Positions 14,295-60,837 of a stretch of DNA of 64,000 bases are shown in pieces. Positions within the stretch are counted from its first letter, which is position 1; every line of letters starts with the position of its first letter. The translations under genes were made by a program, and so were the position numbers. Below the pieces are notes generated by a model, which was not told where the DNA came from, made no database searches, and saw only the letters and a list, made by a program, of their open reading frames with translations. Origin of the DNA: Ignavibacteriota bacterium (GTDB taxonomy: Bacteria > Bacteroidota > Ignavibacteria > UBA10030 > CAVZMI01); NCBI GenBank assembly GCA_963776275.1, contig CAVZMI010000015.1, forward strand, positions 96,001-160,000. The letters are read 5' to 3'.

Positions 14295-14597
14295 TTACAC
14301 CTCATAATCGACGACTGCCCGGGATTCTCTTATTGAGCCGGCAAAATCCGATACTCTAACATGATCGGGATGTTTTTGATATGTTTCAAGATCGTCTTTG
14401 TTCCGAAATTCAGAGTATAGCACGATATCATATGCCATAGTACTTGGACTAAAATTGCAGCCAACTTCCAGTGCCTGAATAACAGAAATTTTTTCCTTGA
14501 GTTCTTCAAGCATCGACTTCATTTTCTTAAGATTTTCTTCTTTCGACAGTTCATCGACATTCTTTTTAATTTTCCACATTACGATGTGTTTAATCAT
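14295..14597 (-). CDS. Dabb (stress-responsive alpha/beta barrel) family protein
   Basis: MIKHIVMWK...YQKHPDH...AVVDY. Confidence 0.9.
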   Translation of the reverse strand: MIKHIVMWKIKKNVDELSKEENLKKMKSMLEELKEKISVIQALEVGCNFSPSTMAYDIVLYSEFRNKDDLETYQKHPDHVRVSDFAGSIRESRAVVDYEV

Positions 14598-14615
14598 ATA
14601 TACCTATTCTCCGCA

Positions 14616-15113: not shown

Positions 15114-15730
15114 TATTTTCCTGGGATATTGAATACGGGGAAGTGACGAACTAATATTCTTTCAACATCATCAAGCCATTCGATACGTTGATCGGGTGTG
15201 CTTGTGACTATGACACCATATGTTGTCCTATGAAAATTCCTTACGCCGCATAAGTTAAAAATACAATTTTTCCAGATGGTTTCCAAAGGATCGCCAAAAA
15301 CTTCCCGCTCTCTTTCCGGCCGGGTATTCGATGTGTTGAAGACGACGGCTGTTTCGGCTTTAAGAAGACCGAGCGGTGTGCCCTCGCCGCTATCGCCATT
15401 GATAAACTGATATGTAACAGCAGGACGAAAGACACGATCGATCCACCCTTTCAATATTGCAGGCGGTTGCCCCCACCAATTCGGATGAACAATAACAATT
15501 CCATGCGAATGTACAATTTCATCGCAGTGCAATTTAATGGTTTCCGGGATGACGGCAGTCGTCTGAAATTCTTCGAATGGAAGAATAGGATCGAAATGCT
15601 CTGCATAGAGATCGTGATAAAACACAGAATAGCCAAGATGCCTTAATACTTCAGCACTCCGGCGGGCAATTGCATGATTGAAACTCTGTGTGTTGGGGTG
15701 TGCAACGATAACGGAAATATTTTTATTCAC
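15113..15730 (-). CDS. NAD(P)H dehydrogenase (quinone), flavodoxin-like fold
   Basis: AHPNTQSFNHAI, DLYAEHFDP, PNWWGQPPAILKGWIDRV. Confidence 0.9.
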   Translation of the reverse strand: MNKNISVIVAHPNTQSFNHAIARRSAEVLRHLGYSVFYHDLYAEHFDPILPFEEFQTTAVIPETIKLHCDEIVHSHGIVIVHPNWWGQPPAILKGWIDRVFRPAVTYQFINGDSGEGTPLGLLKAETAVVFNTSNTRPEREREVFGDPLETIWKNCIFNLCGVRNFHRTTYGVIVTSTPDQRIEWLDDVERILVRHFPVFNIPGK

Positions 15731-15764
15731 GGGGATTGGTATCCTTTTTTACATCCGAAATTTT

Positions 15765-16328
15765 TTATGAAGGAGATTTTCGATTGTTGTCGTCGGGGAT
15801 CAGAACACTGCATCCAACACGTGTTGGATGATCCCGAACAAGTGTTTTAGATTCTAACCTGCGGATTATACAGAGAATAAGTAAGTCTCCACCCGCACCC
15901 ATGGTAAAAATCAAGCCAAAAAATAATAACCAGCCGGATCCCGTAATCACCGATACGATTGATGGAATAAATCCCTCCAGCAGATACGGCATCACGCACC
16001 CAATTCTGTACGAGCGGGCATCCATAGACTCGGTACAATGTGCGAATGGTGAAAGAGATTTCCAGTGCATGCCAAAATGAATCGTTTGAAGAGGTTTACC
16101 GGCAAAAAAAGACCACGATAATCCGTGAACGAGTTCGTGGAATGCACTCCCGAGTACGACAAATAGCAAAAGTAGAAAAAGGAATGCCGTGTTTTTCATG
16201 AAGGCGATAATTTCAGTATAACCCCAGAAATGATGATAGAGGGCTAAAAAAAACATCGCAAGCGGCAGAGGAATAAGGATACCGAGTATTGTCGCTTTTG
16301 TGAAAGAGATAGAAATGTCTTTTTCCAT
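15765..16328 (-). CDS. DUF3267-like putative membrane zincin peptidase
   Basis: HELVHG motif after TM helices; GAGGDL; DHPTRVGC. Confidence 0.8.
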   Translation of the reverse strand: MEKDISISFTKATILGILIPLPLAMFFLALYHHFWGYTEIIAFMKNTAFLFLLLLFVVLGSAFHELVHGLSWSFFAGKPLQTIHFGMHWKSLSPFAHCTESMDARSYRIGCVMPYLLEGFIPSIVSVITGSGWLLFFGLIFTMGAGGDLLILCIIRRLESKTLVRDHPTRVGCSVLIPDDNNRKSPS

Positions 16329-16424
16329 TTTATCAAAGCGTTAATTTTTAAGGTGAATACGCTGCAACCGTTTCCGGTACAACTGCCGGAATTGTGACAG
16401 AAATGTTCTCCCAAGGCCAAGGTT

Positions 16425-16853
16425 CTACCGCTTTATTTCCATTCCGGGAGCATCATCCGGTCGTCTCACAAAACCCAGTTTTTCATAAAACGTCGTTTTC
16501 TCTTTTGCACAGAATAGTTGAATATCCCGGATATTCTTCGAGCGGCAATGTTCAATAAGTCGGTTCATGATAGCGCTACCAATTCCCTTGTATTGATATT
16601 CAGGAAGAACGATGACATCGATGATAAGAGCATGGAAAACGCCGTCGGAAAGAATTCGTCCGAACCCGACAAGGGAATCTTTATGATAGGCTGAAATCAT
16701 GTACCAGCTCCGTCCGAGAGCTTCGTGCAGCTGATTCTCATCCAGGCGATATTCTTTATTCCATCCTGCGGATTCGAAGAGTCTATAGAAAGCTTCCCGT
16801 GAGGGAAGAGTAACTTGATATTCATAGGAATCCATCGGCATGCTTCCTTTCAC
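16425..16853 (-). CDS. GNAT family N-acetyltransferase
   Basis: LVGFGR, DVIVLPEYQYKGIGS acetyl-CoA motif, FYEKLGF. Confidence 0.92.
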   Translation of the reverse strand: MKGSMPMDSYEYQVTLPSREAFYRLFESAGWNKEYRLDENQLHEALGRSWYMISAYHKDSLVGFGRILSDGVFHALIIDVIVLPEYQYKGIGSAIMNRLIEHCRSKNIRDIQLFCAKEKTTFYEKLGFVRRPDDAPGMEIKR

Positions 16854-17076
16854 TACTCTATACTAATTTAACAGATAACTTTTCTTAAGCAATATTACAG
16901 GATTTTTTGGATGTCAGCCAATATAGGCAGGTACTTGTGCGAAGTGTTAATAGGAGAATTTTTTAGATATGCGATGAAAATGAGGAATGGTTGTTCAAGA
17001 GAGGCAAGTTCTCTCATATCCGAAGACAGAATAGCATATAAAAAAAATCCATTCGAATTTCTCCTTTCTCACCGTA

Positions 17077-17319
17077 TTACTGAAGGTTCGGTACTTCAGG
17101 ATGAGCGAGTGAATGTTTTTTCAATTCATCTTCAATGGCCAATGCGACTAGTCGAAGAAGTGATGTCGAACCGGTATCTTGAGAAACAGTATCAAGCCGT
17201 TCATCTTCTCGATAGTAATCGTCAACCGACCTGACCACCTCCCGTATCAAACGCGCGGCCTCATGAAGTTTTATCTTTTCGGTCTCGGTAAGCGAAAATT
17301 CAATTTTTGGACGTACCAT
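17077..17319 (-). CDS. Small hypothetical helical protein
   Basis: GGAGGA RBS; 80-aa amphipathic ORF with no recognised family. Confidence 0.55.
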   Translation of the reverse strand: MVRPKIEFSLTETEKIKLHEAARLIREVVRSVDDYYREDERLDTVSQDTGSTSLLRLVALAIEDELKKHSLAHPEVPNLQ

Positions 17320-17530
17320 AAATTCAATCCTCCGATAAATTCCTTTATTGATAAGTACCCCCCATTACTTATACCGCAGCCACTACGGATTTTGTGACAG
17401 ATATTTCGTTTTGGCCTTATTTTTCAGGGTAAAAACGATGGAGAATCCAAGAATATATGAGTTCTGGATAAGTCTAGGGAGTACTTTTAATTTCAGATGC
17501 TAGCATGCTGTTCTCGAGTGAGATGCACGG

Positions 17531-18226
17531 TTAATCTTTGGGGGCTTTCTCAAATATTGAGATGATTTTCTTTAAAACTTCGGTATAGTCGAATGTAACT
17601 CCAACACCGACTCCCGGCGTAGTGATATGGTACGGTCCATAGGTCTGGTTTCGTTGCAGCATCATTAATTGATTGAGTGTGGTCGGATCGATTTTTCCAT
17701 AGCGGGACATTTGTGCGTTGAAATTTTCTTTTGCCCACGCGAGCAAAGAGTCTTTCCGTGTTTTCGGTCGGGTTTTTTTCATTTCTTCACGCAACGCAAA
17801 CTGTTTGAAACCGGGATAAAGAATAATAAGAGAATCAATTGCACCTTGTGAAACCTTTCCGTTGCCTGACGCGACAGTTGAGGTTGTATCGTTGGAACCG
17901 ACACCGGCGATGACCGGAGATTCAGATGTGTCGCTGACTTTATCGGGGACAGGAACCGGAAATCCACCGACTGGTCTTCTTGGTTGGTAAACTCCCCCAT
18001 TGTGAACTTTTATGGGTGATGTGGTTGTCGATAGTGAACTGAAAAGTATGGATGGTGCGTGTGGATTCGAAGAGATGACAACTGTAATTTCCGGTTGATG
18101 AACTTCAAGATAGCTTCCGGGATTCAGTATAATTACTATAACAATTAAGAGTGCGAATACAATCAATGCTGTAACAAGGGCGTACTTTTCCTCCTGCGTA
18201 ACCTTATATGATCGTATGCTCTTCAT
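17531..18226 (-). CDS. Single-pass membrane protein with Pro/Ser-rich linker (reminiscent of a TonB N-terminus)
   Basis: N-terminal TM, GFPVPVPD low-complexity stretch. Confidence 0.6.
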   Translation of the reverse strand: MKSIRSYKVTQEEKYALVTALIVFALLIVIVIILNPGSYLEVHQPEITVVISSNPHAPSILFSSLSTTTSPIKVHNGGVYQPRRPVGGFPVPVPDKVSDTSESPVIAGVGSNDTTSTVASGNGKVSQGAIDSLIILYPGFKQFALREEMKKTRPKTRKDSLLAWAKENFNAQMSRYGKIDPTTLNQLMMLQRNQTYGPYHITTPGVGVGVTFDYTEVLKKIISIFEKAPKD

Positions 18227-18251
18227 ACTTCCATTGTATTGGTATTCCTAC

Positions 18252-18279
18252 TTAGACAGTCGGATCGAAAAAAAGTTAC
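18252..18279 (-). promoter_or_regulatory. Candidate ECF sigma promoter
   Basis: GTAAC-N17-GTCTAA upstream of ATG 18226. Confidence 0.35.
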
Positions 18280-18460
18280 GCCAGGGGAGGCGAATTTTTT
18301 TAAAAAATCCCCCTCGATAATCTTTTAAGGAGAACAATCTCCGGGTGGAAGGTACCCCTGTATTGTCATTCCAACGGAGGGTGATCACTTCTCAGCAGGT
18401 AACAATAGAAGCCCCCGACGAGTGATTGTTATTCACCATACCGTAAATCTACGAAGGATA

Positions 18461-19378
18461 TCAATCTATTTTTTCCAGATCGTACGGCGTACGCTGATAG
18501 ATGTAGTAGTTCAGCCAATTTGAGAAAAGCAAATTGGCATGACTTCGCCACCGAACAATTGGCATTTTTGTAGGATCATTATTGGGAAAATAATTTTCAG
18601 GCACTTCAATTTTCAATCCTTTTTTAACATCTCTATCATATTCCTCCTTCAGGGTAAGGGGATCATATTCGGAATGTCCTGTAACGAAGACCTGCCGTCC
18701 ATCGGTCTTTGCGAGAATATAAAGACCGGCTTGTTCCGATTCCGAGATAATTTCTAAATCGGGAACGGTAGCAACATCCGATTTTCTGATTTCGGTATAT
18801 CGTGAATGAGGAGCAAGAAAAACATCGTCGAATCCGCGGACAATCGACGCTGTTTTATTATTGACAGTATGGGGGAAAACGCCAAACATTTTTTTTGGCA
18901 GCGGATATTTGGGAATACCATAATGATAATACAATCCTGCCTGTACACCCCAACAGATATATAGAGTGGATGTCACATGATGTATTGTCCATTCCATAAT
19001 ATCTTTCAACTCTTCCCAGTAATCCACCTCCTCGAATTCCATCTGTTCGACAGGCGCTCCGGTGATGATCATGCCGTCATATTTACTTTGATTCACCTGG
19101 TCAAAAGTTTTATAGAATTTCTCAAGGTGATCTATCGGTGTATTGCTTCCGGTATAAGATTTTGTCCGGAGAAGGCCGATTTCGACCTGAAGCGGAGAAT
19201 TCGACAGATTACGCAGTATATGTTTCTCGGTTGTGATTTTTAGCGGCATCAGGTTGAGTATAAGTATCCGTAATGCGCGGATATCCTGATGAAGGGCATG
19301 TGATTCGCTCATCACGAACACATTTTCATTCCGCAATGTTTCTATTGCCGGCAATTCATCGGGAAGGATGAGTGGCAT
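18461..19378 (-). CDS. metA: Homoserine O-acyltransferase MetA (acetyl-CoA type predicted)
   Basis: LNLMP, TGAPVE, ICWG catalytic Cys, PHSR, GHSEY. Confidence 0.95.
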
Positions 19379-19453
19379 AACGACTCCTTACTTTATTGAT
19401 ATTCATCAATTGTTTTTAATAAGATACGACATTTAAGGCCACTTTTTCAAGCG

Positions 19454-20689
19454 CTATTCATTGATCCGTTTGATGGTTACGATGGTTTTATCGTCGGCAA
19501 AGGGGGCCTGCGCCGAATAGACCTGAATATCCTCGAGAATTCTCTGGGTAATTTCTTTTGCAGAAAGATGTTTATACGCAAGTAATTTTTCGCTCAGGCG
19601 CTCTTCACCAAACATCTCTTTATTAGCATTCATTGCTTCCGTGATGCCGTCGGTATATAGGAGCATAATATCGTTCACATGAAGGTTGATATTCTCGGTC
19701 GAAAAACTCTGGTCGGGTGCAAGACCAAGAACCGGGCCGGTGTTTTCAAGCTGCGTGATCGTATCGGTCCGGGCTGAATAATGCAACGGACTATTATGGC
19801 CTGCGTTGCAGAAGAGGCAGAGACCTTTCTTGTTATCGAATAATTCGGCATAAAAAAGGGTCACAAACCGCTCATCAGGGAATGTGCGATGAATGAGGTT
19901 GTTGATTTTTTTGATTATGGTGTTAATCTTTGTTTCGAAACTTGCACCCATTTTCAATGCACCGGAAATATACAATGCCTGGATTGCCGCTGAGAGTCCT
20001 TTACTAGCGGCATCACCGACCACAACCCCGAGGCGATCGTTCGACGCGCCAATATCCAGATAATCGAAGAAGTCTCCACCGACGATACGTTCCGGAAGTG
20101 AGACGCCGAAAAGCTGATAAGGCCCGAAATCATGTTCATGTGCGGGCAGAATGCTGCGCTGGATTTCCCGGGCCTGATCGATGTCGCGCTCGAGCCACCG
20201 TTTCTGCTCGGCGATATTTCTGTTGCGCATTGCCGATGTCACGGCGCTGCTGATGATATTCATCGTATCTATCAGCTCCTGATTCAGTGAGGGGGAATTC
20301 AATGCAAGAATATATTGATAGAGGCGCTGTTCGCCTATTTTAATGCGCTCGCCGACTCCGGTTGCAGAATAACGCTGGATGCCCTTCCTGCGTAAATAGG
20401 CATTTGTTTCGTTTGCGAGGATGGATCGGTGTTTCCCGACCTCATAAAAAATCGGATTTTCGGATACACGAAGAGAATATCGATCCTCGATCTGCGCCAT
20501 ATCGCCGAGCTGTTTCAACAGAATATATGATTTTTTCGATGGACTCAGACTCCATAGCCGTCCGCCGGTAATATTTACTGTCTCATGTGTGATAATTTCC
20601 CTCAGAACATGCAAAAGGAGTTCTTCGTTCGTCTGGAAATTCTCGGGTGTAAGTCGTTCAATTGTACGGAAGAGTTTTCGTTGATTCAT
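19454..20689 (-). CDS. PP2C/SpoIIE phosphatase with GAF-like N-terminal domain
   Basis: VGGDFFD, GDAASKG, NAGH, TDGITEA, DDKT. Confidence 0.9.
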   Translation of the reverse strand: MNQRKLFRTIERLTPENFQTNEELLLHVLREIITHETVNITGGRLWSLSPSKKSYILLKQLGDMAQIEDRYSLRVSENPIFYEVGKHRSILANETNAYLRRKGIQRYSATGVGERIKIGEQRLYQYILALNSPSLNQELIDTMNIISSAVTSAMRNRNIAEQKRWLERDIDQAREIQRSILPAHEHDFGPYQLFGVSLPERIVGGDFFDYLDIGASNDRLGVVVGDAASKGLSAAIQALYISGALKMGASFETKINTIIKKINNLIHRTFPDERFVTLFYAELFDNKKGLCLFCNAGHNSPLHYSARTDTITQLENTGPVLGLAPDQSFSTENINLHVNDIMLLYTDGITEAMNANKEMFGEERLSEKLLAYKHLSAKEITQRILEDIQVYSAQAPFADDKTIVTIKRINE

Positions 20690-49600: not shown

Positions 49601-50738
49601 TCCTTCAGATCTCACAAACAACCAGAAATTTCTCATCATCGGAGATCCATCGATTCTTCCACTGGCACCACGAGCATTAATAGTAATCGATAGTATTAAC
49701 GCCATAGGCGCAGGTGAAACCGGCACGATTCTTATTCCAGCCCTGAAAAAGACAACAGTCCAGGGTCACCTTCGCCCGCCTCTTGACGTTCCGGGCACAC
49801 AACCGATGCAAGTTTCATTTGTTGTCAGAGATGGAAATAAGCATGTATCTCTTGTTGATGAATTGGACGGCCATTTTGATTTTAACAAATCCGGTGAAAT
49901 ACTTTTCCGAGGAATTGTTACGGTCCCGAATGGAAAATATACCGGCACATTTATCCCTCCTAAGGATATCTCGTACTCGGATAATAACGGACGCATCACC
50001 CTCTATGCCAATGATGGTACTCAGGATGCAGTAGGGTATTCAAATTCTATCTTGATAGGAGCTGTAGACAGCACGACAGTTACTGATACACAGGGACCAC
50101 AAATTTCGCTCTTCCTCCAGTCACGGAATTTCCAATCGGGCGATGTTGTCAATGAAAATCCCACACTCTATATCGATCTCTTTGATGAAAACGGTATCAA
50201 CCTTTCAACGGCAAGTATAGGTCACGGACTCGATATGTGGCTTGATGAAGCGTCGAAAAGTGTTCCTTTATCAGAATATTATCGCAGCGCACCCGATTCA
50301 TATCAAAAAGGGACAATTGAATACCCGCTTCAATCACTCTCATCAGGCGATCATACGCTGAAGGTGCGAGCTTGGGATGTGTTTAATAATTCAACAACAG
50401 CTGAAACAAAATTCCGGGTTGTATCGAGTGACGTATTCGTTGTAACCGATGTCATGAATTATCCAAATCCATTCTCGTCACAAACAACATTTACATTCAA
50501 TCAAAATCAGATCGAAGGCGTCGATGTCGAAGTAAAAATTTATACAGTTGCCGGCAGATTAATCCGAACATTGAAAGAACCGGGAATATCCGAGAGTTTT
50601 GTACGAATCCCATGGGATGGAACTGATGGAGATGGATCGCCGCTTGCCAATGGTGTCTATCTGTACAAGGTAATTGTGAAAACTGTAAGCGGTGATAAAA
50701 CGCAGGAAGTCCTTGGCAAACTGGCAGTCCTGAAATAG
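46665..50738 (+). CDS. porU: Type IX secretion system sortase PorU (C25 peptidase)
   Basis: SVLASGEWYRIEV, IYNEFSSG..DPVAIRD, GHG and ATC catalytic dyad, C-terminal NYPNPF...NGVYLYK CTD. Confidence 0.92.
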   Translation: MECTGIQYRSWRNILYHYLWLFVVIITINSLCLFSQQVDPGWNVIRSTPSELIIEYRPVYLPSKEVHIGQQTFTTIDFLGSISFSYQHEGYPDIRFASSCIGVPSRTIHTTIIAATYDEVPGISLPPIQVMDGRINEAATENNRQKNPAFNQAAYSSMIYLPDTLARVIEIREVQQMLVANIEIFPVQFNAAAHSVRKYNRIVIQIQFGIPAVYTVPAASPSPILSVMLNKETARSWRTRLPVLKKVPTPSVLASGEWYRIEVKNTGLYKLDYTMLKIAGINVDQIDPRTIKIYNNGGRELPEPLSVSRPSDLVENSILVNGEEDGKFDPTDVILFYGRSPRGWTYDQLKKTFRHYINDYAESNYYWLTYNGVPGKRMSVVPETESQNPYRPSGIVGKIFYEEEMNKIILGGADGSGRAWYGPKLTSQLNSLSRRETLSDAIPGNPVRIRVKAVGRADQRTTMLVSQDNNALGSIAFSAASSSEEADEPGQVEFIGKVPTGTAQTMIQFQYGCQSVAAEAYLDWYDILYWRESRAINDELPFDAPDTNAVVLYHLDGFSSTDVKIFDVSDYANVKIMQMHAAALTGYELQVRASSGSISSYFAVVSSAYKTPLGIQKMANSNLHEIDPSADLLIITHKDFWDAASRLATYRNAAGRNSMKTAVVDVADIYNEFSSGQLDPVAIRDYIRLAYTSWKHPPKYVLLFGDGTYDFKNILGRGLEWIPPYETEESLNYIDSYTYDDFYVMLDLYSKLPTIAIGRITCRSLDEANIWVDKIINYETSTDFEEWRDLLVFCADDGLKSESQINSEPYHTEDTEALSNLSALKRFDQKKIYLVEYPTVLSSSGRTKPDAAEALINQWNRGALMISWMGHGNPEYWAHEHVFDRTKTIPRLNNGSRLPLVTAATCDFGHYDALEQSSAEDLASRKEGGSIVTIATSRPVFGSFNAMFMISLYKELLGRTDSIGQISRLGDAWIRAKQNPSDLTNNQKFLIIGDPSILPLAPRALIVIDSINAIGAGETGTILIPALKKTTVQGHLRPPLDVPGTQPMQVSFVVRDGNKHVSLVDELDGHFDFNKSGEILFRGIVTVPNGKYTGTFIPPKDISYSDNNGRITLYANDGTQDAVGYSNSILIGAVDSTTVTDTQGPQISLFLQSRNFQSGDVVNENPTLYIDLFDENGINLSTASIGHGLDMWLDEASKSVPLSEYYRSAPDSYQKGTIEYPLQSLSSGDHTLKVRAWDVFNNSTTAETKFRVVSSDVFVVTDVMNYPNPFSSQTTFTFNQNQIEGVDVEVKIYTVAGRLIRTLKEPGISESFVRIPWDGTDGDGSPLANGVYLYKVIVKTVSGDKTQEVLGKLAVLK

Positions 50739-50881
50739 AAACGTTGTCTGCACCGTCGCCATATCCATTTCAGCGGAATTATAGAAGTAGGATTAGTCCG
50801 CTATGCGCATCGGTATCGCGAGTCGGGTGTAAATATACCCTCCGCCTTTCTGGAAGAAGAATGGGTAAGAATCAATCCGGA

Positions 50882-51379
50882 TCAACGAATATTGTTTATG
50901 CGGTTCTTCGCACTATCGTGATTACTTTTCATGATGTTCGGAATGAGCGTGAAACGCCGGTTTTCATCCGATAGTTTGTTCTCTAGACCGATGTACTTTA
51001 GGTAATAGGCCTGGTTCATCTCCCTCATAGTGTTTGTTTGGGTCTTCGGGTCATTGGTCTTCGTTTGTACAGCCTTATTCAGATCTGCCTGCCATCGATT
51101 GGCGAGATCATAAAGTCGTTGGCTGGAGTTTTTCAGCCACAGGGTAAAACGATTCGCCTCGGTTTGTTCGGAGGCGGGAAGATTCGCAGGAAGAGGTTGA
51201 TTTGCAAGTTCTTGCAGAGCCTTTGCCGTCTGCCGTAATATCTCGATTCGCTGCCTAGCAAATTTGGGTGTCTCCATTTGTTTGTCCTGTCCGAACGTCG
51301 TGCCGTCTATGACAGGTATAATAGCCAGTGAAGAGATTAAAATAAGGTTACATAGGAACGAAGTAGTTTTGGATTTCAT
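50882..51379 (-). CDS. Secreted helical hypothetical protein
   Basis: AGAGG RBS, signal peptide, C-terminus ENRRFTLIPNIMKSNHDSAKNRINNIR. Confidence 0.75.
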   Translation of the reverse strand: MKSKTTSFLCNLILISSLAIIPVIDGTTFGQDKQMETPKFARQRIEILRQTAKALQELANQPLPANLPASEQTEANRFTLWLKNSSQRLYDLANRWQADLNKAVQTKTNDPKTQTNTMREMNQAYYLKYIGLENKLSDENRRFTLIPNIMKSNHDSAKNRINNIR

Positions 51380-51439
51380 TTTTTCCTCTCTGTCTATTAC
51401 ACCATCGTGGGGACGTTGTCAACAGCGTCCCCACATTTA

Positions 51440-51623
51440 TGTACCGGTGGCCCGATTCGAAGCGATCTCAGTAAATTGTTCGAGAAAGTCTTCACGATTT
51501 CTATAGGTGACTTCAGCCGTAAAAGTGCAAGGTTTAAACGAAAATCATAATCGCAACAGAATCATAACTGCGACAATATCTTCCGCTCGTGAGAGTTATG
51601 GGATTGAGTTGCAGTTACGATTC
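51440..51623. repeat. Degenerate tRNA-Met 3'-end core plus element terminus, copy 1
   Basis: TGTACCGGtGGcccGATTCGAA resembles the tRNA 3' end; downstream sequence aligns with 52588-52770 and ends in inverted repeat GAATCATAACTGC/GCAGTTACGATTC. Confidence 0.75.
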
Positions 51624-51655
51624 TAATTGCACAGGATTCTTTCATCCGAATGTCA

Positions 51656-52255
51656 TTACTGGACTGCATATCCTGCAGGAACTTTGAATTTTTCTTCTGA
51701 TACTTTTACATTTTCCTCTACTTTAACAGCTTTTTGTAATGTTTCAACACTTGTTGTCTTAACATGTAAATACATCAGAATCTTATTCCAACCTCCATAT
51801 ACAGTGACGGTTCCTTTTCCATCATCCGAGCCGAATGACTCACAATTCTTTCCAGCAATAGACATTGCAGGCATTTTTTTTATCTTACCCGACTGACGGT
51901 CTTTTTCAGTTCCGAAATCCGTCCATTCTATGCGTAATTCAGTACCCCTATATGCATCGCCCCGCTTGTAAGCGATTTTTTTTGTAGGGCTCACTGAATA
52001 TAAACTTTTTCCGTTGCTAAAGTAGGTTTCTTCCAATTTATTATCTTTAGAAAACGTTTCTCTGCATTCCTTCATACCGTAATCGTCGAAATACACAATT
52101 GTATTCTTTTTAATTTCCATTGTACCCACTTTCATAGTCATATCATATTTTACGATACCGGACTTGATATCGTATTTTTTGATCTGACTCCTGAGCGGAG
52201 ATGCAAGCATTAAAAATGTTGCACAGAATAGTAAAAATATTGTATAGGTTTTCAT
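51656..52255 (-). CDS. Secreted beta-rich protein (DUF4412-like)
   Basis: AGGAGG RBS, signal peptide, YFDDYG, IAGKNC, FKVPAGY. Confidence 0.75.
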   Translation of the reverse strand: MKTYTIFLLFCATFLMLASPLRSQIKKYDIKSGIVKYDMTMKVGTMEIKKNTIVYFDDYGMKECRETFSKDNKLEETYFSNGKSLYSVSPTKKIAYKRGDAYRGTELRIEWTDFGTEKDRQSGKIKKMPAMSIAGKNCESFGSDDGKGTVTVYGGWNKILMYLHVKTTSVETLQKAVKVEENVKVSEEKFKVPAGYAVQ

Positions 52256-52587
52256 TCGACCTCCTGACAGAAAAATAGACGATTATTGACGATAAAACTA
52301 ATGAATCTCGGCACGAATGGCAAGCTTTTTTAGCTTCCCATGTTGAATATTCGTTTGGTCTGGAAAACTCTGAGAATATACATATAAATATAGAGCCCCT
52401 CATCATCCACAGACAAGGGCCTTTTTTATTTCGTCGTAATGTATCAGTATTCTTCAGGCGAAAGAATAATGAAAAAGCCGAACTAAAACGAATCCGGCTT
52501 TCTTCTGCGCACAAACAATACGCTGTTTTAAATCAACAGCGCTCCTTTAAACATTCACAATTCTGAACTCTGAATTCACTATTTACA

Positions 52588-52770
52588 TGTACCGGGGGAG
52601 CGTCTTAAAACGCTTTCAGCAAATTGTCCGAGAGAGTATTCACAATTCCGGTAGCCGACTTTAGCCGGAAGTCTCGAAAAATAAAGCAATAATCGTAACA
52701 GTAACAGGATCGTAACTGCGACAACGACTTGCGCTCGTGAGAGCTGTGGATCTGAGTGGCAGTTACGGTT
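52588..52770. repeat. tRNA-Met 3'-end core plus element terminus, copy 2
   Basis: Exact TGTACCGGGGGAG core; CGTAACTGC...GCAGTTACG inverted repeat; shares GCTCGTGAGAG with copy 1. Confidence 0.8.
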
Positions 52771-52851
52771 TTCCATTGTTCCCCACTTTAATCCATATCA
52801 TCCTTTTTACAGACTTAAAATAGACCACTTTGGGGGGAAGGTCAGATACCC

Positions 52852-52992
52852 TCACAGAATTCCGAATATTTTTAAAACTATCACGAGAACACCTAAAGCC
52901 ATCACACAGAGAAGAAATATCAGTATAAATTTTTTTCCAGGACTTAATTCATCGGTCATTTGTTGTTGCTTTGAAGAATCATTATGTGTCAT
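52852..52992 (-). CDS. Small 46-aa C-terminally anchored membrane protein
   Basis: GGGAGG RBS; MTHNDSSKQQQMTDELSPGKKFILIFLLCVMALGVLVIVLKIFGIL. Confidence 0.6.
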   Translation of the reverse strand: MTHNDSSKQQQMTDELSPGKKFILIFLLCVMALGVLVIVLKIFGIL

Positions 52993-53111
52993 GATAACCT
53001 CCCATTTGGTGGAACACGTTAAAATACAAATGACATCGACATTCATCTACCGTAGATGAAATCGACGTATTGCATTCCTGACTACTGAATAATACTGTTA
53101 TAGGAAGAATA

Positions 53112-53462
53112 TCATGATACAGGCGGGTCTCTGGAAAGGTATCGGAGATAGATAGCCTGCGTAAATTGATTAACCTCAGGCTGAATGGGAAGTAATACAG
53201 AGATTGAGTGAATCACCAATCCATCGACAGCAATGATCGCTGCGGAATGGACTGTGGTCTCCTGAAGGAGATGCTTCTGTGGGATTTGGAAACGATGTTC
53301 TTTCGGAATTGGATATTTTGAATCGTGAGTGGGCGAACCATAGGTATACGCACTGTCGATAACTATTGTCGTTTCTGATTTCACGGATTGACCGGCATAT
53401 ATGGTCGTCGGAAATCCGGCAATGACAAAAATAAATATACTATGGAGTAATACAGATTTCAT
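53112..53462 (-). CDS. Hypothetical exported protein ending in an RxPP motif
   Basis: Signal-like N-terminus, His-rich middle, C-terminal YLSRDPPVS*. Confidence 0.55.
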   Translation of the reverse strand: MKSVLLHSIFIFVIAGFPTTIYAGQSVKSETTIVIDSAYTYGSPTHDSKYPIPKEHRFQIPQKHLLQETTVHSAAIIAVDGLVIHSISVLLPIQPEVNQFTQAIYLRYLSRDPPVS

Positions 53463-53690
53463 TGCGAGAAGATAAGGAATTCCTGTTCTACAAACAATAC
53501 ATTTTTCAAATGGCTTTCTTGCTTAGATCTCTCTAAATCGATTATGTCAATGAATTTAGAGTGAAGAATGGAAGGTTGAAAAGGAAAAAGAAAAAAAGGT
53601 GAGAATTTAGATATGATAATTAAAGGGCGGTTTTACTTTAGCCAGCCACCGAAACATTCACAATTCACTACTCACAATTCACTATTGACT

Positions 53691-53835
53691 TGTACCGGGG
53701 GAGGGATTCTCCGCCGCAATGGACCGAGCTCTGGAGGCGGATCAGCCTCACCGATTTATAATGCGTGGCTGAGAATACATACCATCCCTTCGGGATGGTA
53801 GTACTGCTCGCTCCGCTTGCTGCCCACGACCTACG
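53691..53835 (-). repeat. att-like 35-bp duplicate of the tRNA-Met 3' end, interrupted by two hairpin inserts
   Basis: TGTACCGGGGGAGGGATTC [63 bp] GAA [47 bp] CCCACGACCTACG; with inserts removed it is identical to 59137-59171. Confidence 0.9.
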
Positions 53836-53934
53836 TATTTCAATACTAAGCACAAGACGATGCGGGAAAAATCTAATGCTAAATCACAGCCGAGTTTTTA
53901 TTCACAAGTCAATCTTCACAATTCACTATTTGTT

Positions 53935-53949
53935 TGTACCGGGGGAGCG
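53935..53949. repeat. Additional tRNA-Met 3'-end core
   Basis: TGTACCGGGGGAGCG, identical to 52588-52602, preceded by TTCACAATTCACTA. Confidence 0.75.
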
Positions 53950-54340
53950 CCATGTAACGTCGGGAAGAATTCTCACTCCCTCTTTTTTGCTCGAAACACC
54001 CACTTTTTGTTGGGAAGAGTCATCTTTTCGGATTAATGACAAATCATTCCTACCTGTTCGTCTTCTAGAACTGCCAAGCGGATACATTCACGGGAATCTG
54101 CCTTGTATCTTGTCTTTAAACTTGTTACAGCAATACAACAAAGGTTCAGAAAAATCAATGCTTATAAACCTGTAAATGAAACAATTAACCAATTAAAACT
54201 AAAATCTAAGCCCGGGTTACGGCGGGTCGCTTAATTATTTTTTAAAAAACTATTGACATTAACTCATTTTTATACTAATTATGGTTAATAAAATTAACTT
54301 GTTTATATTTGTATCAATATTTATTTTTAAACATAAAACA

Positions 54341-54962
54341 ATGGACAAAACAATGGACAAAACAACTTTAACACCTGAAGAAAGTCTCTTGTTAATAACA
54401 AAGACAATAGAAGAGACTAAAAAAAGATTTGAAGAAAATGGCTTCATTATTATTATTTTGGGGCATACTTATCTTTTATTGTATCACTAAGTCAGTTTGT
54501 ACTCACAAAACTGGGAATAAACAAGATCGTTTATATAGAAAATTATACAATTCGTAACTGGACTGTTATTTTATACCCGTTGTTTGGTGGGATAATACAT
54601 TTAATATATGTTAAAAAAACATAAAAAAAATTACCCAAAACCATCATAGGAAAGATCATTGGAGCAATGGGTTGGTGATGGTTCTGAATTTTATGATATT
54701 AGGTTTTTTCTTTGGGGACACACTTGGTGGACGCCTTATCCCTATATTTTTAATTTTACTTGCCTTCTGGTGCATAATCAATGGAGTTTCAATTAGTTTT
54801 AAACCGCTTATAATTGGAGGTATTCTGTTAAATTTGATTGGATTTGCTGCTTTTCATATCAACTGGCAATACCAGCCGTTAATGCTTACAGCAGGATCAT
54901 TAGTAGCTTTAATAATTCCGGGTATATTACTCAACAAAAACAAAAAACAGGAAAATGTTTAA
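54341..54962 (+). CDS. Multi-pass membrane protein, frameshifted
   Basis: MDKTTLTPEESLLLITKTIEETK start and TM-rich end in ORF 54672-54962; breaks fall at T/A/G runs. Confidence 0.65.
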
Positions 54963-55244
54963 AGATTTAGACCCATATTACACTCGCAGCTTCGTTTGTC
55001 AATAGTCTCTATTTTAATGACAGTTGATGAAGCCAATTTTAGTTTTATAAAAGAAACTACTAAGGCTGCAGCCGGCAATATAAGTATCCAAATAAAAAAA
55101 TTACAGGAGGCGGGATATGTTAAAGTAAAAAAAACTTTCAAAAATAATTATCCAAATACTACTATATCAATAACAAGTAAAGGAATAGAAGCATTTGAGG
55201 ACTATGTAAATAATCTTAAAAAATATATAAATCCCCAAAAATAA
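54955..55244 (+). CDS. Winged-helix (MarR-like, HTH_34) transcriptional regulator; frameshift near 54974
   Basis: MFKDLDP-ILHSQLRLSIVSIL...GNISIQIKKLQEAGYV...TSKGIEAF. Confidence 0.85.
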
Positions 55245-55293
55245 TTTTTTTACCAAAATGGTTAATATTATTAACTACTTAAAAGGATTAATT

Positions 55294-56987
55294 ATGAAAA
55301 CTACAATATTTATCTTAATGATTTCCATCCTGATGGAATTAAGTTGTGCTCAAAATAACTCGCAAAAGGTTGATGGGCAGATTCTGAAAAATACATTTAG
55401 TAAAGACGACATCCAGGCATTAAACTTCTATCGTCAATATAGTTCGTTTACCGATCCGGGAGAATATAAATATTTGTATAAAAATCTGCCTGATTCATTA
55501 CCGGAGCTTTGCAGTTTAATAAGATCCCAGTTTATTCATCCCTATGAGGAATTGCCAAAATATCGTGAACAAATTCCCAAAGAGAGATGGGATGAAACAT
55601 TAAAGTATCCAACAGTTAAATCGATTTTGAAGGGTCTTTTATCCTATGACTCCAGGGGTTTAGTGAAAGATCGGAAACCTGAAAACCGATTAGTACTTGC
55701 TTGCCGGGAAAATGCAATTTTACTGGCGTCAATATTAAAATATCGTGGCATTCCGGCCAGGGTTCGTGGTGGTTATGCTACTTATTTAATTCCTGACTTT
55801 CATACGAATCACGCAATTTGTGAAGTATGGAATGAAAATGACAAGCGTTGGATGCTTGTTGACCCTAGCACAGGTATGATTGATTTCAGCAGAGATAAAT
55901 TTGACTTTAGTAACGATGCATGGTTAAAAATGCAAAAGAAGGAAATAGATCCAAACTTATTTGGGATGCCTGGCCAACATCCGGGAGTTCTTTCGATAAT
56001 TGCGATAGTTTGTACTGATCTGGCATTCATATTGGGTACTGAATATACTATTTATCAATATGCACCAATATTGGATTATGCCTTTCAAAACAATAATCAA
56101 CTAACTTCAAAACATATAGAAACCCTAAACAGAATAAGTGAATTAATGAAATCGCTTGATGCCGATAACCTTTCGAAATTACAAGATATTTATAACAATA
56201 CACCTGAAATTCAAATTACAAAGACATTTGAATCTGATACAAAAAAATCAGAAAATTCGAAAATAACGCGAAGGCTAAAAATACTTCAATAAATAAACCA
56301 GATATTGAATTTGTAGATATACCAGGAGGTACATTTATGATGGGAAGCCCTGTTACCGAGCAGGGAAGAAAAGATGACGAGATACAACATCAAGTTACAC
56401 TGAGCGCTTTTAAAATGAGTAAATATCCTATCACCTTTGAGCAATACGATTTATTTTGTGACGCGACAGGAAGAACTAAACCCTGGGGACGTGAACAGGG
56501 AAATATTCCGGTTTCACGGGTTACCTGGTATGATGCGGCTGCATTTGCCGAGTGGATGGGTTGCAGGCTGCCAACTGAAGCAGAATGGGAATATGCAGCT
56601 CGTGCAAATACAACCACTCCTTTTTACACTGGTGATTGCCTGACATCTGATCAAGCAAATTTTAATGGGGAAGAACCTTATACAAATTGTGCTAAAAGTG
56701 AAAACAGAAATAAACCATTGCCAGTGGGTAGTTTTCCACCCAATGCCTTTGGATTATATGATATGCATGGTAATATATTGCAATGGTGCAATGATTGGTA
56801 TGGTGAATACAACGTAAATGAAAAAATAAATCCGAAAGGACCTGAAAAGGGAGCCAATAAAATAATTCGCGGTGGCGGCTGGCATAACGCGGCATGGGAA
56901 TGTCGGTCAGCCTATCGAGGAGGAGTAGGTCTTTATCCAGGAACCAGAGGTACGGGTATTGGTTTTAGGATAGTGAAAGATAAATAA
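55294..56987 (+). CDS. Transglutaminase-like lipoprotein probably fused to an FGE/SUMF1 domain; frameshift near 56260
   Basis: CREN...NHAICEVW...LVDP triad; alternate frame reads INKPDIEFVDIPGGTFMMGS into RLPTEAEWEYAAR and NAFGLYDMHGN. Confidence 0.8.
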
Positions 56988-57005
56988 TAATCAAAAAGAA
57001 ACTAT

Positions 57006-57933
57006 ATGATTGATGTTTCAAACCTAAGAAAAACATTCGATACCATTGAGGCGTTGAAAGGTATTTCATTCAACATTCAACAAGGTGAATGTTATGGACT
57101 TTTGGGTCCCAATGGTGCAGGTAAAACAACTACGATCTCCATCATGAGTACAATAGTAGAACCAAATGAAGGAGAAGTGAGAATTGCCGGATATGATTTG
57201 AAGAAGAATCCGTTGGAATGCAAGAAAAACATTGGCGTTGTTACACAGGAAATAGCACTTTATAATGAGCTCTCGGCATATGATAACTTACTATTTTGGG
57301 GAGGCTTATATAATGTTCCGAAACCGGAATTAACTAAGCGTATTGATGAAACAGTAAACCTGCTCGGACTGACCGACAGGAAGAATGATAAGGTAAAAAC
57401 CTATTCCGGTGGAATGAAACGCAGAATTAATATCGCTTCTGCATTGCTTCACAGGCCTAAAGTTCTGTTTATGGATGAACCTACTGTGGGTATTGACCCT
57501 CAGAGCCGGAATTTGATTTTTGAAGTGGTGGAAAAGCTGCATAAAGAGGGAATGACAATTGTTTATACCACTCATTATATGGAAGAGGCTGAGCGTTTGT
57601 GCGATCGTATCGGAATTATTGACAATGGAGAAATCATTGCGCAGGGAACATTGGATGAATTAAGGACATCAGGTTCGATGAAAGAAACCGTTGTAATCTC
57701 TTATACAAATCTTACAGATGAACGTTACAATACAATAGAAAAAGAATGGAATGATCTCCAACGTTTTGAAGACACGATACATTTTTATTCCATGAATATT
57801 CAGGGTGATTTATCAAAAATAATATTGAAGTGCAATGACGTTTGGTCTTGATATCCGGCATATTGATATCAAAAAGATTAACCTTGAAACCATATTTTTA
57901 AGTTTAACCGGAAAAAAACTAAGAGACAAATGA
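57006..57933 (+). CDS. ABC-2 type exporter ATP-binding subunit; frameshift near 57842
   Basis: GPNGAGKTT, YSGGMKRR, MDEPT; corrected end NLETIFLSLTGKKLRDK* overlaps the next ATG. Confidence 0.92.
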
Positions 57934-58727
57934 TAAAACTAGTTAAGAAAGATCTGAAATTATTCTTCAGTAATAGGCAAGACATGATGCTTACTTTTGT
58001 ATTGCCCATAATATTTATTACCCTGTTTGCTTTTGTTTTCGGGAAAATGAACAATTCTGAAGAAAATCATTTAGTGAGTCTTGTTCACTCGGTGGCAGGT
58101 ACATCAGTAATGATGCTATTATTTTCAGTAGCTGGAATAGGTGGAAGTTTTTTGGATGAAAAGCAGGAAGGTATGTTGAAGAAGTTACTTTGCTCACCCA
58201 TACCTCCTAACTATATCCTTTTTGGGAAATTGGTATTTGCTAATATCATTTCCATTATTCAGCTGTCAATCATGTTTATTTACGCCTGGCTGTTTTTTGG
58301 CTTAGACATTATGCACCATCTCCCTTCTCTTATACTTATAATTTTAACAATGGCATTTGCTTGTTCCGGTTTTGGTATAGTTCTTGCCTCATTTGCTAAA
58401 ACACGCCAACAAGTTCAGGGATTTTCATCAATAATTGTACTTATTATGAGTGGTATTGGAGGTAGTATGATCCCTATATTTGTAATGCCTGAAATTATGC
58501 AAAAGATAGCTGTTTTTACAGTTAATTATTGGGCGATACAGGGGATTTATGACATCTTCTGGAAGCTTGTTCCGATTAACAGATATTACATTCTTATCAA
58601 GAGTTTTTGTTTTAATTGGCATTGGAACTTTATTGAATTTCATAGCTCTTCAGATGTACAAGAGAAATATTTTAAAGATTGTTTAAATGGGCAAAAAAGT
58701 GCTGGCTATAACATCGTGTATAAGTAA
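57930..58727 (+). CDS. ABC-2 type permease (3' end probably frameshifted)
   Basis: DEKQEGMLKKLLCSP, GIGGSMIP; multiple TM helices. Confidence 0.88.
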   Translation: MIKLVKKDLKLFFSNRQDMMLTFVLPIIFITLFAFVFGKMNNSEENHLVSLVHSVAGTSVMMLLFSVAGIGGSFLDEKQEGMLKKLLCSPIPPNYILFGKLVFANIISIIQLSIMFIYAWLFFGLDIMHHLPSLILIILTMAFACSGFGIVLASFAKTRQQVQGFSSIIVLIMSGIGGSMIPIFVMPEIMQKIAVFTVNYWAIQGIYDIFWKLVPINRYYILIKSFCFNWHWNFIEFHSSSDVQEKYFKDCLNGQKSAGYNIVYK

Positions 58728-58837
58728 TGGCGGGGTTTATAGCGTATTTAACGTCTCGTTTAGCAGCGTAGGTCTGTAACGTGTGATACGGACGCAGCTC
58801 TGAAGTCCCTTACTGTTCCTACCGTCGACCGTTAGTC
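58705..58837 (+). other. Degenerate attC-like site
   Basis: GCTATAAC...GTTAGTC ends about 133 bp apart at the end of the permease gene; partial inner complementarity (AGTAA/TTACT). Confidence 0.4.
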
Positions 58838-58980
58838 GCAATTTCACGCCAAGCAATTGGTACTTTACAAACATTATAACTATGGAAGAAAATTTTTTCA
58901 TTAGAGATAGTTCACATATCGGATACTGTTCATTTAACCAAAATACAAAATCCCCCAAAACATCTGGAGGAATTTTCACT

Positions 58981-59136
58981 CAATTCTTCAATCTTCAATC
59001 TTCCCGCCTACGCTAAAGCTTCGGCGGGTGAACCGGGCATTATCAATCTTCATTCTTTCCGTCCAAAAAACATGGCGGATTTCGTTCAGCCCGCCTATGG
59101 CGGGCTTCACTCAACAATCTTAAATCTTCAATCATT
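58981..59136. repeat. TCTTCAA heptamer repeats interleaved with three GC hairpin elements
   Basis: CCCGCC-tacgctaaagcttc-GGCGGG, TCCGtC...GGCGGA, AGCCCGCC-tat-GGCGGGCT between (A)ATCTTCA units. Confidence 0.75.
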
Positions 59137-59138
59137 TG

Positions 59139-59212
59139 TACCGGGGGAGGGATTCGAACCCACGACCTACGGATTATGATTCCGACGCTCTAACCAGCTG
59201 AGCTACCCCGGC
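59139..59212 (-). tRNA. tRNA-Met (CAU), elongator-like; CCA not encoded
   Basis: GCCGGGGTAGCTCAGCTGGTTAGAGCGTCGGAATCATAATCCGTAGGTCGTGGGTTCGAATCCCTCCCCCGGTA folds as a cloverleaf; Ile2 not formally excluded. Confidence 0.93.
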
Positions 59213-59272
59213 ATTGAATTGCGATGATGAAAAATGGCGTCATTCAACGACGCCATTCATATGACCGGAAAA

Positions 59273-59301
59273 AAGATAAGGAAAATATACTCGAAAAGCA
59301 A
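59273..59301 (-). promoter_or_regulatory. sigma70-like promoter for the intact tRNA
   Basis: TTGCTT-N17-TATCTT. Confidence 0.5.
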
Positions 59302-59403
59302 TGGAGAAATGCCGTTCGAAAACAACTCCGGCTCTCGTGCATCCTCAAGGACAGAGGCAATTCAGAGGAGATGGTCAAAGGCTGTCTTTGCTCTCAATAA
59401 ATG

Positions 59404-59687
59404 TTCCGGGGGAGGGATTCTCCGCCACGACTGATGATACGAGAAGGCGGATGCCTGCCCGCCGCTCCGCTCTTGCAGGCGGGCGCCTCTGGCGCAGAAC
59501 ACTGGGCTGCCTTCTGCAGCCCAGTACTGCTCGTCCCTCAAGGGACTTGCTGCCCACGACCGGAGTTTATCCCGCCGTTATTTGGCGGGAGATTATGATT
59601 CCGACCTGTCCCGATTGCTCTTGATCGGGACGCTCTAACCAGCTGCCTGCCCGCCGTGCTTCATCTTTTGGCGGGAGCTACCCCGGC
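59404..59687 (-). pseudogene. Second tRNA-Met(CAU) copy interrupted by five palindromic inserts
   Basis: Six collinear segments (59404-20, 59497-99, 59553-61, 59591-605, 59632-45, 59676-87) reproduce 70 of the 74 nt of the intact tRNA, with one substitution. Confidence 0.92.
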
Positions 59688-59698
59688 GCCTACTTTTC

Positions 59699-59727
59699 AA
59701 TATAAAAAATAAATCCTTCGGTTGCAA
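59699..59727 (-). promoter_or_regulatory. sigma70-like promoter for the interrupted tRNA copy
   Basis: TTGCAA-N17-TATATT, 11 nt upstream of tRNA position 1. Confidence 0.6.
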
Positions 59728-60137
59728 TCTATCTATAGTCTGCCATCTCCACGTTGCCAAATACTCTATAGATAATACTGACACACTATATGTCAAATAG
59801 AAAAATTGGTTCCTGGGCATTATAGGGTATCCGAAAACCGACATTATTAATTGATTCTAAATGCATATTTTCATTCCTTTCTAAGAAAGGAATATGTCGA
59901 ATTCTATCTCTTAATTTCAATCCTGTTTTGGTATGCTAGGCTTTGAAACTATGTACAGCATTTTACAAAGCATGACATCTTCGTCGGGGTTTCTGTGGAA
60001 CACATAATTGCTGTTTTAAGCCGAAGCCTTTTGCGATGTCCTGTCACGCTTCGGCACTCAGTCATCCTGACCAGCGCAATCTTCGGACTTTCTGGAACTC
60101 TCTATTTACAGGAAATTCCTAAGAAAGGAAGGAGAAT

Positions 60138-60837
60138 TTGATGATTTATAAAAGGAAAAAAAAGGAATCTCGAGCCGCTTCTATACTTGGATATCCTGCT
60201 TCTTCACAGAATCTACTACCGATCGAACTGCCGAGGCCCACACTTGATCGTGGTAAATCAGTATTAAAAGCATTACAGCAAAGAAAAACTATCCGTGAAA
60301 TAAGTGATAAAAAACTTACTTTGCAAGTACTTTCAAATCTCCTCTGGGCAGCATGCGGAGTAAATCGTAAAAAAGGTCCGTTTGGAATTCCTGGAAGAAC
60401 TGCTGCTTCAGCAAGTAACTCACAGGAAATTGATCTTTATGTTGCCATTCAGGAAGGAATTTATTTATATGATGCATTTCATCACAGGCTGGTTCCAGTT
60501 GTTGCGGGTGACCTGCGTACCCTGGCAATTGGTCATGGCCAGGCGAATTTTGTAGCTAAGGCTCCGGTTCATCTCATTTACATTGTGGATGTCAATAAAC
60601 TTTCCAATACATCCGGTTATCAGGAACCTGGATTGCAAGATCCTGAAATTCAAAAATCATATTATTATGTTGATACAGGTCTCATTGCAGGCAACGTATA
60701 TTTGTTTGCTGCTTCTCAAGGTCTGGCGTCATGGTTCCATAATTGCAATAAATCCGGTCTTACAGCAAAATTAAAATTGCGTGCCTGACCAGCGGGTACT
60801 CTTTGGCCAGACAGTTGGATATCCTGTTAGGAAATAA
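60138..60837 (+). CDS. Nitroreductase family (SagB/ThcOx-like) protein; frameshift near 60785
   Basis: ALQQRKTIRE, LSNLLWAACG, RTAASASNSQ, GNVYLFA; corrected end DQRVLFGQTVGYPVRK*. Confidence 0.88.

Follow-up and report, generated by a model that had tools for sequence, protein, structure and literature searches.

The DNA analysed here (the window) is a stretch of 64,000 nucleotides from an Ignavibacteriota bacterium, positions 96,001 to 160,000 of contig CAVZMI010000015.1. The contig is 175 kb long. It belongs to a genome assembly of 3,698,693 bases in 38 contigs that is 96% complete and is labelled G000 in this report. The locus of interest is the interval between an open reading frame (ORF) of 1357 amino acids and the gene for elongator tRNA-Met. 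It holds an array of four small modules delimited by copies of the tRNA 3' end and numbered from module 1, nearest the ORF, to module 4, nearest the tRNA gene. The ORF is referred to as porU, a label taken from an earlier note made by reading the sequence. Related genomes were compared as a set of 201 for DNA searches and a set of 277 genomes of the order for pattern and protein searches. G001 is of the same genus as the window genome and G002 is of another genus in its own family. G050 is of family f7, and G057 and G075 are of genus g32 in family f9. G201 and G075 are one genome.

The exact 13-mer TGTACCGGGGGAG, which is the tRNA 3' end read as its reverse complement, was found at 52588, 53691, 53935 and 59137. 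Allowing up to 2 mismatches gave 6 matches in the window where 0.66 were expected, a count that none of 100 shuffles attained. Across the whole genome these four were the only exact copies. Four more had 1 mismatch, including one in the window at 59402. A degenerate copy at 51440 reads TGTACCGGTGGCCCGATTCGAA. The spacings between the tRNA-end copies were 1148, 1103, 244 and 5202 bp. The earlier note had named the same four positions and the same module sizes. Its degenerate copy was also upheld, as it aligned with the true tRNA end of G001 at 82%.

Modules 1 and 2 are built alike. In the direction of the tRNA each has a short trailer of GTGAATT-type heptamers, the cargo, and an arm running into the 13-mer core. 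Module 4 has the same order of parts with its own trailer type and its own arm. Module 3 (244 bp) has no gene and is comprised of a trailer and the hairpin-riddled 3' half of a tRNA, with nothing else. In the tRNA-end copy at 53691 the match to the tRNA runs for 19 nt, followed by a T-loop insertion of approximately 120 nt (53710-53831) and then CCCACGACCTACG. This end of module 3 (53691-53844) was 85.5% identical to a spare tRNA-Met copy in G001.

The arms of modules 1 and 2 are of one type, here called D1, with 72% identity over 184 nt between 51440-51622 and 52587-52770. D1 is approximately 185 nt long and contains ATCGTAAC in two direct copies and one inverted copy. It was predicted to fold into a hairpin with a 16-bp stem, followed on the plus strand by a run of T. 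Most of the 26 predicted pairs were invariant, and compensatory change was seen in 3 of the 26. The hairpin was not called by a simple terminator scan, its loop being too long for that scan. Rfam searches of 50500-60500 at E up to 1 matched only the tRNA gene and gave no match for D1 or for the window's own spare tRNA-Met copy. The module 4 arm, CGCCATGTAACGTCGGGAAGAATTC, is unlike D1. The coordinates of all features are listed in the table.

Features of the porU to tRNA-Met interval and its borders (window positions; D1 and D3 are repeat families)
Feature	Position	Strand	Evidence or remark
porU ORF, left anchor of the interval, 1357 amino acids	46665-50738	+	Homologues in G001 and G002
Extra 641-bp segment with a 165 amino acid signal-peptide ORF (50882-51379)	50739-51379	-	G001 has 38 bp there; no Pfam family
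Original tRNA-Met flank and displaced degenerate 3' end	51380-51461	-	Terminator hairpin 51407-51434; tRNA end 51440-51461; terminator-like site called
Module 1 D1 arm	51440-51622		Two direct and one inverted ATCRTAAC; long hairpin
Module 1 cargo, 199 amino acid secreted-type protein	51656-52255	-	No Pfam family
Module 1 start	52256-52587	-	Heptamer trailer 52549-52587; terminator-like hairpins 52542-52520 and 52503-52472
Exact 13-nt copy between modules 2 and 1	52588-52600	-	13-mer search
Module 2 D1 arm	52601-52770		Sequence comparison
Module 2 cargo, 64 amino acid ORF and 116 amino acid signal-peptide ORF	52852-53046 and 53112-53462	-	No Pfam family
Module 2 start, heptamer trailer	53652-53690	-	87% identical to module 1 trailer (family D3)
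Third tRNA-end copy, closes module 3	53691-53844	-	3' half of hairpin-riddled tRNA-Met
Module 3 start, heptamer trailer	53896-53934	-	Family D3, 71%
Exact 13-nt copy and module 4 distal arm (CGCCATGTAACGTCGGGAAGAATTCTCAC)	53935-53975	-	Same arm closes the G201 homologue
Module 4 cargo	54281-58727	+	Small membrane ORFs and operon; Pfam
Module 4 HTH_34 regulator	54996-55244	+	Pfam
Module 4 transglutaminase-like protein	55258-56292	+	Pfam
Module 4 FGE-sulfatase domain protein	56337-56987	+	Pfam
Module 4 ATP-binding cassette (ABC) ATPase	57006-57851	+	Pfam
Module 4 ABC-2 permease	57930-58727	+	Pfam
Module 4 tRNA-proximal end	58728-59136	-	GATTGAA-type heptamers; GC-rich CCCGCC...GGCGGG hairpins; absent from the G201 homologue
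Intact elongator tRNA-Met(CAT)	59138-59212	-	ARAGORN; Rfam tRNA 66 bits; its end is the exact copy at 59137
Spare tRNA-Met copy, full-length, hairpin-broken	59402-59692	-	1-mismatch core; upstream of the real gene, outside the array

In G001 the site is empty. There porU, with 95% amino acid identity, is followed by approximately 100 bp and then directly by tRNA-Met, and the flanking DNA is 94-95% alike on both sides (G001 14089-19901 corresponds to window 50736-44923 and G001 13457-13992 to window 59645-59135). The G001 segment 13969-14051 (locus L022) aligned to window 51461-51380 with 82% identity. Window 51380-51461 therefore holds the original end of the tRNA together with the adjoining flank, shifted by 7.7 kb. 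Since the site is empty in G001, window 50739-59136 is extra DNA, including the 51462-59136 portion between tRNA ends. The 641-bp segment at 50739-51379 does not have tRNA-end copies at its bounds. In G002 porU is 47% identical and also near tRNA-Met, at a distance of 5.8 kb with different genes between. Directly behind the tRNA-Met of G002 is one 285-bp unit made up of a trailer and the hairpin-riddled 3' two-thirds of tRNA-Met, with the same core end. Families outside that of the window had porU identities of 36-43%. Among 22 public loci with tRNA-Met, 19 had no further core copy downstream within the DNA fetched. Further downstream copies at up to 2 mismatches numbered four at L061 and one each at L065 and L046. 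The comparison across relatives that the earlier note had proposed thus found the interval to be variable, with no insertion in one relative and other content in another.

The cargo modules differ from the window in base composition, with G+C contents of 0.369 (module 1), 0.391 (module 2) and 0.352 (module 4) compared to 0.438. The module 1 protein was present in 44 of the 277 genomes. Its closest matches (85% and 84% amino acid identity) were in genus g32 of family f9, and the best match in its own genus, where the homologues are paralogues, was 55%. DNA homology with g32 was limited to 51640-52324. No tRNA or core was found on either side of the g32 copies within approximately 9-10 kb in G057 or within 1-10 kb in G075, where the contig ends. 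The arms that flank the gene in module 1 are therefore not carried along with it in g32. The 116 amino acid protein of module 2 was found in 5 of the 277 genomes including its own, and the other four were 28-37% identical. The 64 amino acid ORF of the same module is the one that the earlier note called a small membrane protein. Module 4 proteins had 68-93% amino acid identity, and the DNA 79-85% nucleotide identity, to a block behind tRNA-Met in G201, well above the 36-43% of porU outside the window's family. These relationships show a foreign origin for the module 1 gene and the module 4 operon, with the closest relatives in another family.

Module 4 and the arms were found to recur behind tRNA-Met in other families. 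In G201 the order is tRNA-Met, two mini-units of approximately 130 bp, a 6.4-kb module with ORFs of 288, 801, 466 and 226 amino acids, another mini-unit, and then the module 4 homologue. The far end of this homologue has the same arm as in the window and a degenerate core, TGTAACGGAGAAG, after which unrelated DNA begins. The regulator part of module 4 was also found in G202, 1.5 kb behind its tRNA-Met. The exact module 4 arm motif was present in 3 of the 277 genomes. Matches to it with 1 mismatch in these genomes were about as frequent as matches to a reversed-pattern control and were set aside, and only exact matches adjoining the core were counted. A third arm type is common to the 6.4-kb module of G201 and a 6.4-kb island in L046. 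Orphan tRNA-Met-end copies lie behind terminators at 1300-1540 of L075 (G075:C7). One of these has the module 4 arm, and no tRNA gene is present within 1.5 kb.

Nine copies of D1 were seen in all and 8 of the 9 adjoin a tRNA-Met-end core or a remnant of one. In G050 the neighbour of D1 is a 12-nt stretch that repeats the end of the G050 tRNA-Met, and D1 closes a 6.6-kb island at this tRNA at its far end. The island carries OEP, AcrB, HlyD and TetR genes, a cargo of the resistance-nodulation-division (RND) efflux type. D1 was also present in G117, with a degenerate core remnant beside it, and in G055, where the copy has no recognisable core. Four metagenome contigs contained D1, each time beside a core or remnant, and one of them was very like G050. 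A D1 core of approximately 90 nt is about 80% alike across families while its flanks diverge.

The trailer (TGTAAATAGTGAATTGTGAAT..., heptamers) was also located directly after tRNA-Leu(TAG), His, Glu(TTC), Val(CAC), Gly(CCC), Gln(CTG), Gly(TCC) and Tyr. At tRNA-Leu(TAG) the trailer of G000 is 81 nt longer than that of G001, the difference lying between GTGAAT repeats. The trailer was considered as an element-specific arm and rejected on the grounds that it is shared by the 3' flanks of at least eight other tRNA genes and that a shorter form is present in G001.

Hairpins interrupt the spare tRNA-Met copy at 59402-59692 at position 26 and in its D, anticodon and T loops. G001 retains this copy without the D-loop hairpin and with a nested hairpin in its anticodon loop. 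Contigs C4 and C23 have repeats of identical sequence to the D-loop hairpin of the window copy. Repeats of the tRNA-Met 5' end (GAGCTACCCCGCC, on the strand shown) were seen two to three times upstream of tRNA-Met in G050 and G037, both of other families than the window genome. In G050 (L041 2880-3020) they are approximately 67 nt apart with a hairpin between copies. In G037 (L003 1400-2100) they are 150 nt apart and have the D-loop hairpin of the window's spare copy.

Recombinases were sought by Pfam scans for tyrosine (PF00589) and serine (PF00239) recombinases, and TIGR02249 with a cut-off of 265 was used for integron integrases. No PF00589 match was found on the 175-kb contig. The genome has seven, all on other contigs, and PF00239 had no match in the whole genome. 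When the seven tyrosine recombinases were compared to 50737-59700 by tblastn the best E-value was 0.25 and no fragment was detected. The D1-bearing contigs of G050, G055 and G117 and the island contig of G201 were without a PF00589 match. The nearest match to the tRNA-Met locus was approximately 280 kb away in G279 and approximately 485 kb away in G202. The modules therefore lack an integrase, as the earlier note had read from the window, and comparable islands in five other genomes are without an integrase gene as well.

Two of the genome's recombinase genes are Xer-like, and others are located at C21:17375 and C2:33916. Two others, at C23:235771-236259 (L129) and C22:9836-10312 (L130), are IntI/XerA-like and 99% identical to each other. 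They scored 237.7 and 220.6 bits, below the TIGR02249 cut-off. One adjoins an IS481-family transposase and the other is near an ArsN1-like acetyltransferase. Orthologues were found only in G002. These genes were rejected as the helper because the array-bearing genomes G050, G201 and G279 have no close homologue, the best being Xer-level matches of 32-35%. A 359 amino acid tyrosine recombinase at C29:88713-89411 lies directly downstream of another tRNA(CAT). It was also rejected as the helper, as it serves that tRNA(CAT), which has a different end. At a distance of 86.6 kb there are copies of the last 12 nt of the C29 tRNA(CAT), and three of these follow one another every 152 bp. This suggests that the C29 locus is a large integrated element with a mini-array of its own.

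On balance, 51440-59136 is probably an islet abutting the elongator tRNA-Met gene on its 3' side, formed by four serial insertions of recombinase-less modules through an unlinked enzyme, and this is put at slightly better than even. Tandem accretion anchored on the tRNA is supported. From it we infer that a recombinase was involved, that it acted in trans and that the modules may still be mobile. Each insertion would cross over within the last 13 bases of the tRNA and so restore it. Newcomers would push earlier modules towards porU, module 4 then being the newest and module 1 the oldest. The trailer, together with the terminator-like hairpins in module 1, would end transcription of the tRNA. 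The arm beside the 13-nt core would be attachment-site-like. The recombinase would be supplied from elsewhere in trans, making the modules non-autonomous and similar to cis-mobilizable elements (CIMEs).

The modules could instead be decayed stumps of integrase-bearing islands, or of integrative and conjugative or integrative and mobilizable elements (ICEs or IMEs), which became CIMEs by deletion and are now immobile. In published accounts such decay is the textbook route to tandems of this kind (PMC5704250; 10.1101/2020.12.28.424599). The degenerate distal copy at 51440, the geneless module 3 and the tRNA-proximal 0.4 kb of module 4, which resembles hairpin and heptamer debris, are in keeping with it. 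However, no integrase fragment was found in 50737-59700 and no integrase in the comparable islands of G050, G201, G279 and G202. D1 is conserved across families while its surroundings diverge, and no base has changed in the three internal cores. To leave 1.1-kb modules intact at both ends, deletion would have to be very tidy on two occasions. Decay is therefore considered unlikely, and non-autonomous modules are favoured over dead stumps because the arms are kept across families and unrelated cargo is found between the same arms. A DDE-type transposon with a 13-bp target duplication was also considered and is unlikely because no terminal inverted repeats were seen by eye between module starts and ends.

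Several observations count against an islet of trans-mobilised modules. In this genome at least eight other tRNA genes have the heptamer trailer of modules 1-3 as their normal 3' flank, and imported elements would not obviously carry a trailer of host type. Many other tRNAs have cargo-free tandem partial tRNA copies in which hairpins replace loops. There are 3 further 3'-end copies of tRNA-Gly(TCC), 147-148 bp apart with a hairpin as T loop (C23:437300-438000), and 2 of tRNA-Lys(CTT), 126 bp apart and also with a hairpin T loop (C26:44500-45000). The initiator tRNA-Met (C10:40586-42000) has 4 further copies approximately 349 bp apart with hairpins as both D loop and T loop, and each of its units has a small GIY-YIG-like ORF, recognised by eye. 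Such copies hint that tRNA ends undergo some broader process, perhaps other than classical integration. As circular substrates of a tyrosine recombinase, units of 126-285 bp are on the small side.

No helper recombinase was found. The earlier note had suggested looking for an integrase next to a matching attP, and none came to light: the 7 tyrosine recombinases lie elsewhere, and outside this locus the genome, at its 96% completeness, holds no exact 13-mer and no D1 motif. Clusters of the TCGTAAC/GTTACGA boxes were found neither near the 7 tyrosine recombinase genes nor elsewhere in the genome. An autonomous relative with these arms was not detected by DNA search in the 201 genomes, by pattern in the 277, or in metagenome and viral contigs, and a blank in sampled genomes and contigs does not equal absence of such an element. 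The metagenome contigs gave no circle or excision junction; they are short, come from relatives, cover small shares of the stretch and leave module 2 and the porU end without cover, and gaps of this kind prove nothing. Two joints, noted as 'goes back 1136' and 'skips 5875', were examined as a possible circle and deletion and rejected, being cross-matches of the two D1 arms and of the two hairpin-riddled tRNA copies.

The array may have formed with no dedicated recombinase at all, either by homology-facilitated illegitimate recombination of DNA acquired from relatives, with the tRNA as anchor and the core as microhomology, or by whatever process makes hairpin-bearing partial tRNA copies at many tRNAs of this genome. 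Such an origin would fit the failure of genome searches to yield a helper and the genome's own type of trailer on modules 1-3. It would also fit the cargo-free tandem units at tRNA-Gly(TCC), tRNA-Lys(CTT) and initiator tRNA-Met (147, 126 and 349 bp), the 285-bp hairpin-type unit at the same tRNA in G002, and module 3, which is of the same kind. Yet all four copies have junctions exact to the base and two families share the base at which module 4 ends, while microhomology joins would scatter. The conserved 185-nt arm with its repeated 8-mers also resembles a protein-binding attachment site. Such an origin is improbable. Small units are awkward for a classical integrase, and a recombinase-free or single-strand mechanism therefore keeps a small share, close to that of decay or a little under it.

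A true integron-type platform was also weighed, in which the D1 hairpin is a folded single-strand attC-like site and an integron-type integrase inserts at the tRNA end. The hairpin has a 16-bp stem with AAC...GTT at its ends, several G-T pairs form on just one of the strands, and the genome does encode the two IntI/XerA-like recombinases. But their better score is 237.7 bits against 265, they are on other contigs, and their best matches in G050, G201 and G279 are 32-35%. IntI proteins carry a long insert, and the recombinase sequence, as read, is without it. The module boundary is the tRNA core and not the hairpin, only 3 of 26 pairs are compensatory, and gene orientation is mixed. An integron proper is thus highly improbable. 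The earlier note had proposed an integron-like array mobilised in trans. A variable tRNA-Met hotspot with conserved ends and foreign cargo agrees with that proposal, and a strict integron, in view of the missing intI and the mixed orientation, does not.

In other respects the array can be set beside known systems. Like integron arrays it has short units placed serially at one site, a conserved recombination-site-like end and an enzyme outside the units. Unlike them it has no intI beside it, no attC-type boundary, a tRNA-end core, and a regulator of its own in module 4. No intI adjoins the site and the contig has no tyrosine recombinase. attC boxes read RYYYAAC and GTTRRRY. The D1 hairpin ends, TCGTAAC and GTTACGA, misfit this consensus at 2 positions per side and lie approximately 100-180 nt from the module boundary. 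Integron cassettes are mostly promoterless and in one orientation; here the plus-strand operon of module 4, with its own helix-turn-helix regulator, faces the opposite way to the minus-strand genes of modules 1 and 2. The array is not classed as an integron. Xer-dependent modules, such as the pdif modules of Acinetobacter plasmids and the integrative mobile elements exploiting Xer (IMEX), are recombinase-less, use a host tyrosine recombinase and are bounded by 28-bp dif-like sites. The modules here are similar in lacking a recombinase, and differ in that their bound is a tRNA end.

The Prochlorococcus tycheposon islands are serial integrations separated by partial tRNAs, newcomers pushing older elements in (10.1101/2020.12.28.424599). 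The likeness extends to the tRNA-anchored islands, the partial tRNA copies between insertions and the scattered partial tRNAs as scars. The same preprint defines tycheposons as carrying a tyrosine recombinase and often replication genes (10.1101/2020.12.28.424599), whereas the modules here have no recombinase or fragments of one inside the element. Tandem accretion with CIMEs in the ICESt1 family of Streptococcus thermophilus keeps attL and attR while the integration genes are lost (PMC5704250). As in that account, attL/attR-type repeats are found here at the 3' end of the target gene, with units that lack integration and transfer genes (PMC5704250). The array shows direct repeats of the tRNA end, units without integration or transfer genes, and a site that is occupied here and empty in a close relative. 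It differs from CIMEs as described in that account in having no same-arm ICE, IME or prophage partner in the genome or in the 201-277 genomes searched. It also differs in its very small modules (0.24-5.2 kb) and in that arms of related sequence are found in several families at the ends of islands with cargo only. These differences leave descent from a decayed ICE unproven.

A further possibility, also thought unlikely, is a dedicated Ignavibacteriales gene-capture platform on elongator tRNA-Met, a functional analogue of the integron. It would have cassettes of any cargo with a trailer and an arm of approximately 185 nt (three ATCGTAAC boxes and a strand-specific hairpin). An unlinked chromosomal recombinase, possibly a housekeeping Xer-type enzyme, would insert and shuffle the cassettes at the last 13 bases of the tRNA, and the platform would be related to the cargo-free tRNA-end repeats.

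The locus is a tRNA hotspot of a known kind in an unusually bare, integrase-less form. The usual explanation for an island at a tRNA gene is an integrase that the island carries along. At this one tRNA gene, bacterial families exchange modules that carry only cargo, among it an efflux pump, an ABC exporter and secreted proteins. The conserved D1 arm is a concrete handle towards finding the enzyme. If a host or unlinked enzyme moves such modules, much of the 'orphan' DNA of tRNA islands could be an active, helper-dependent gene pool and not wreckage.

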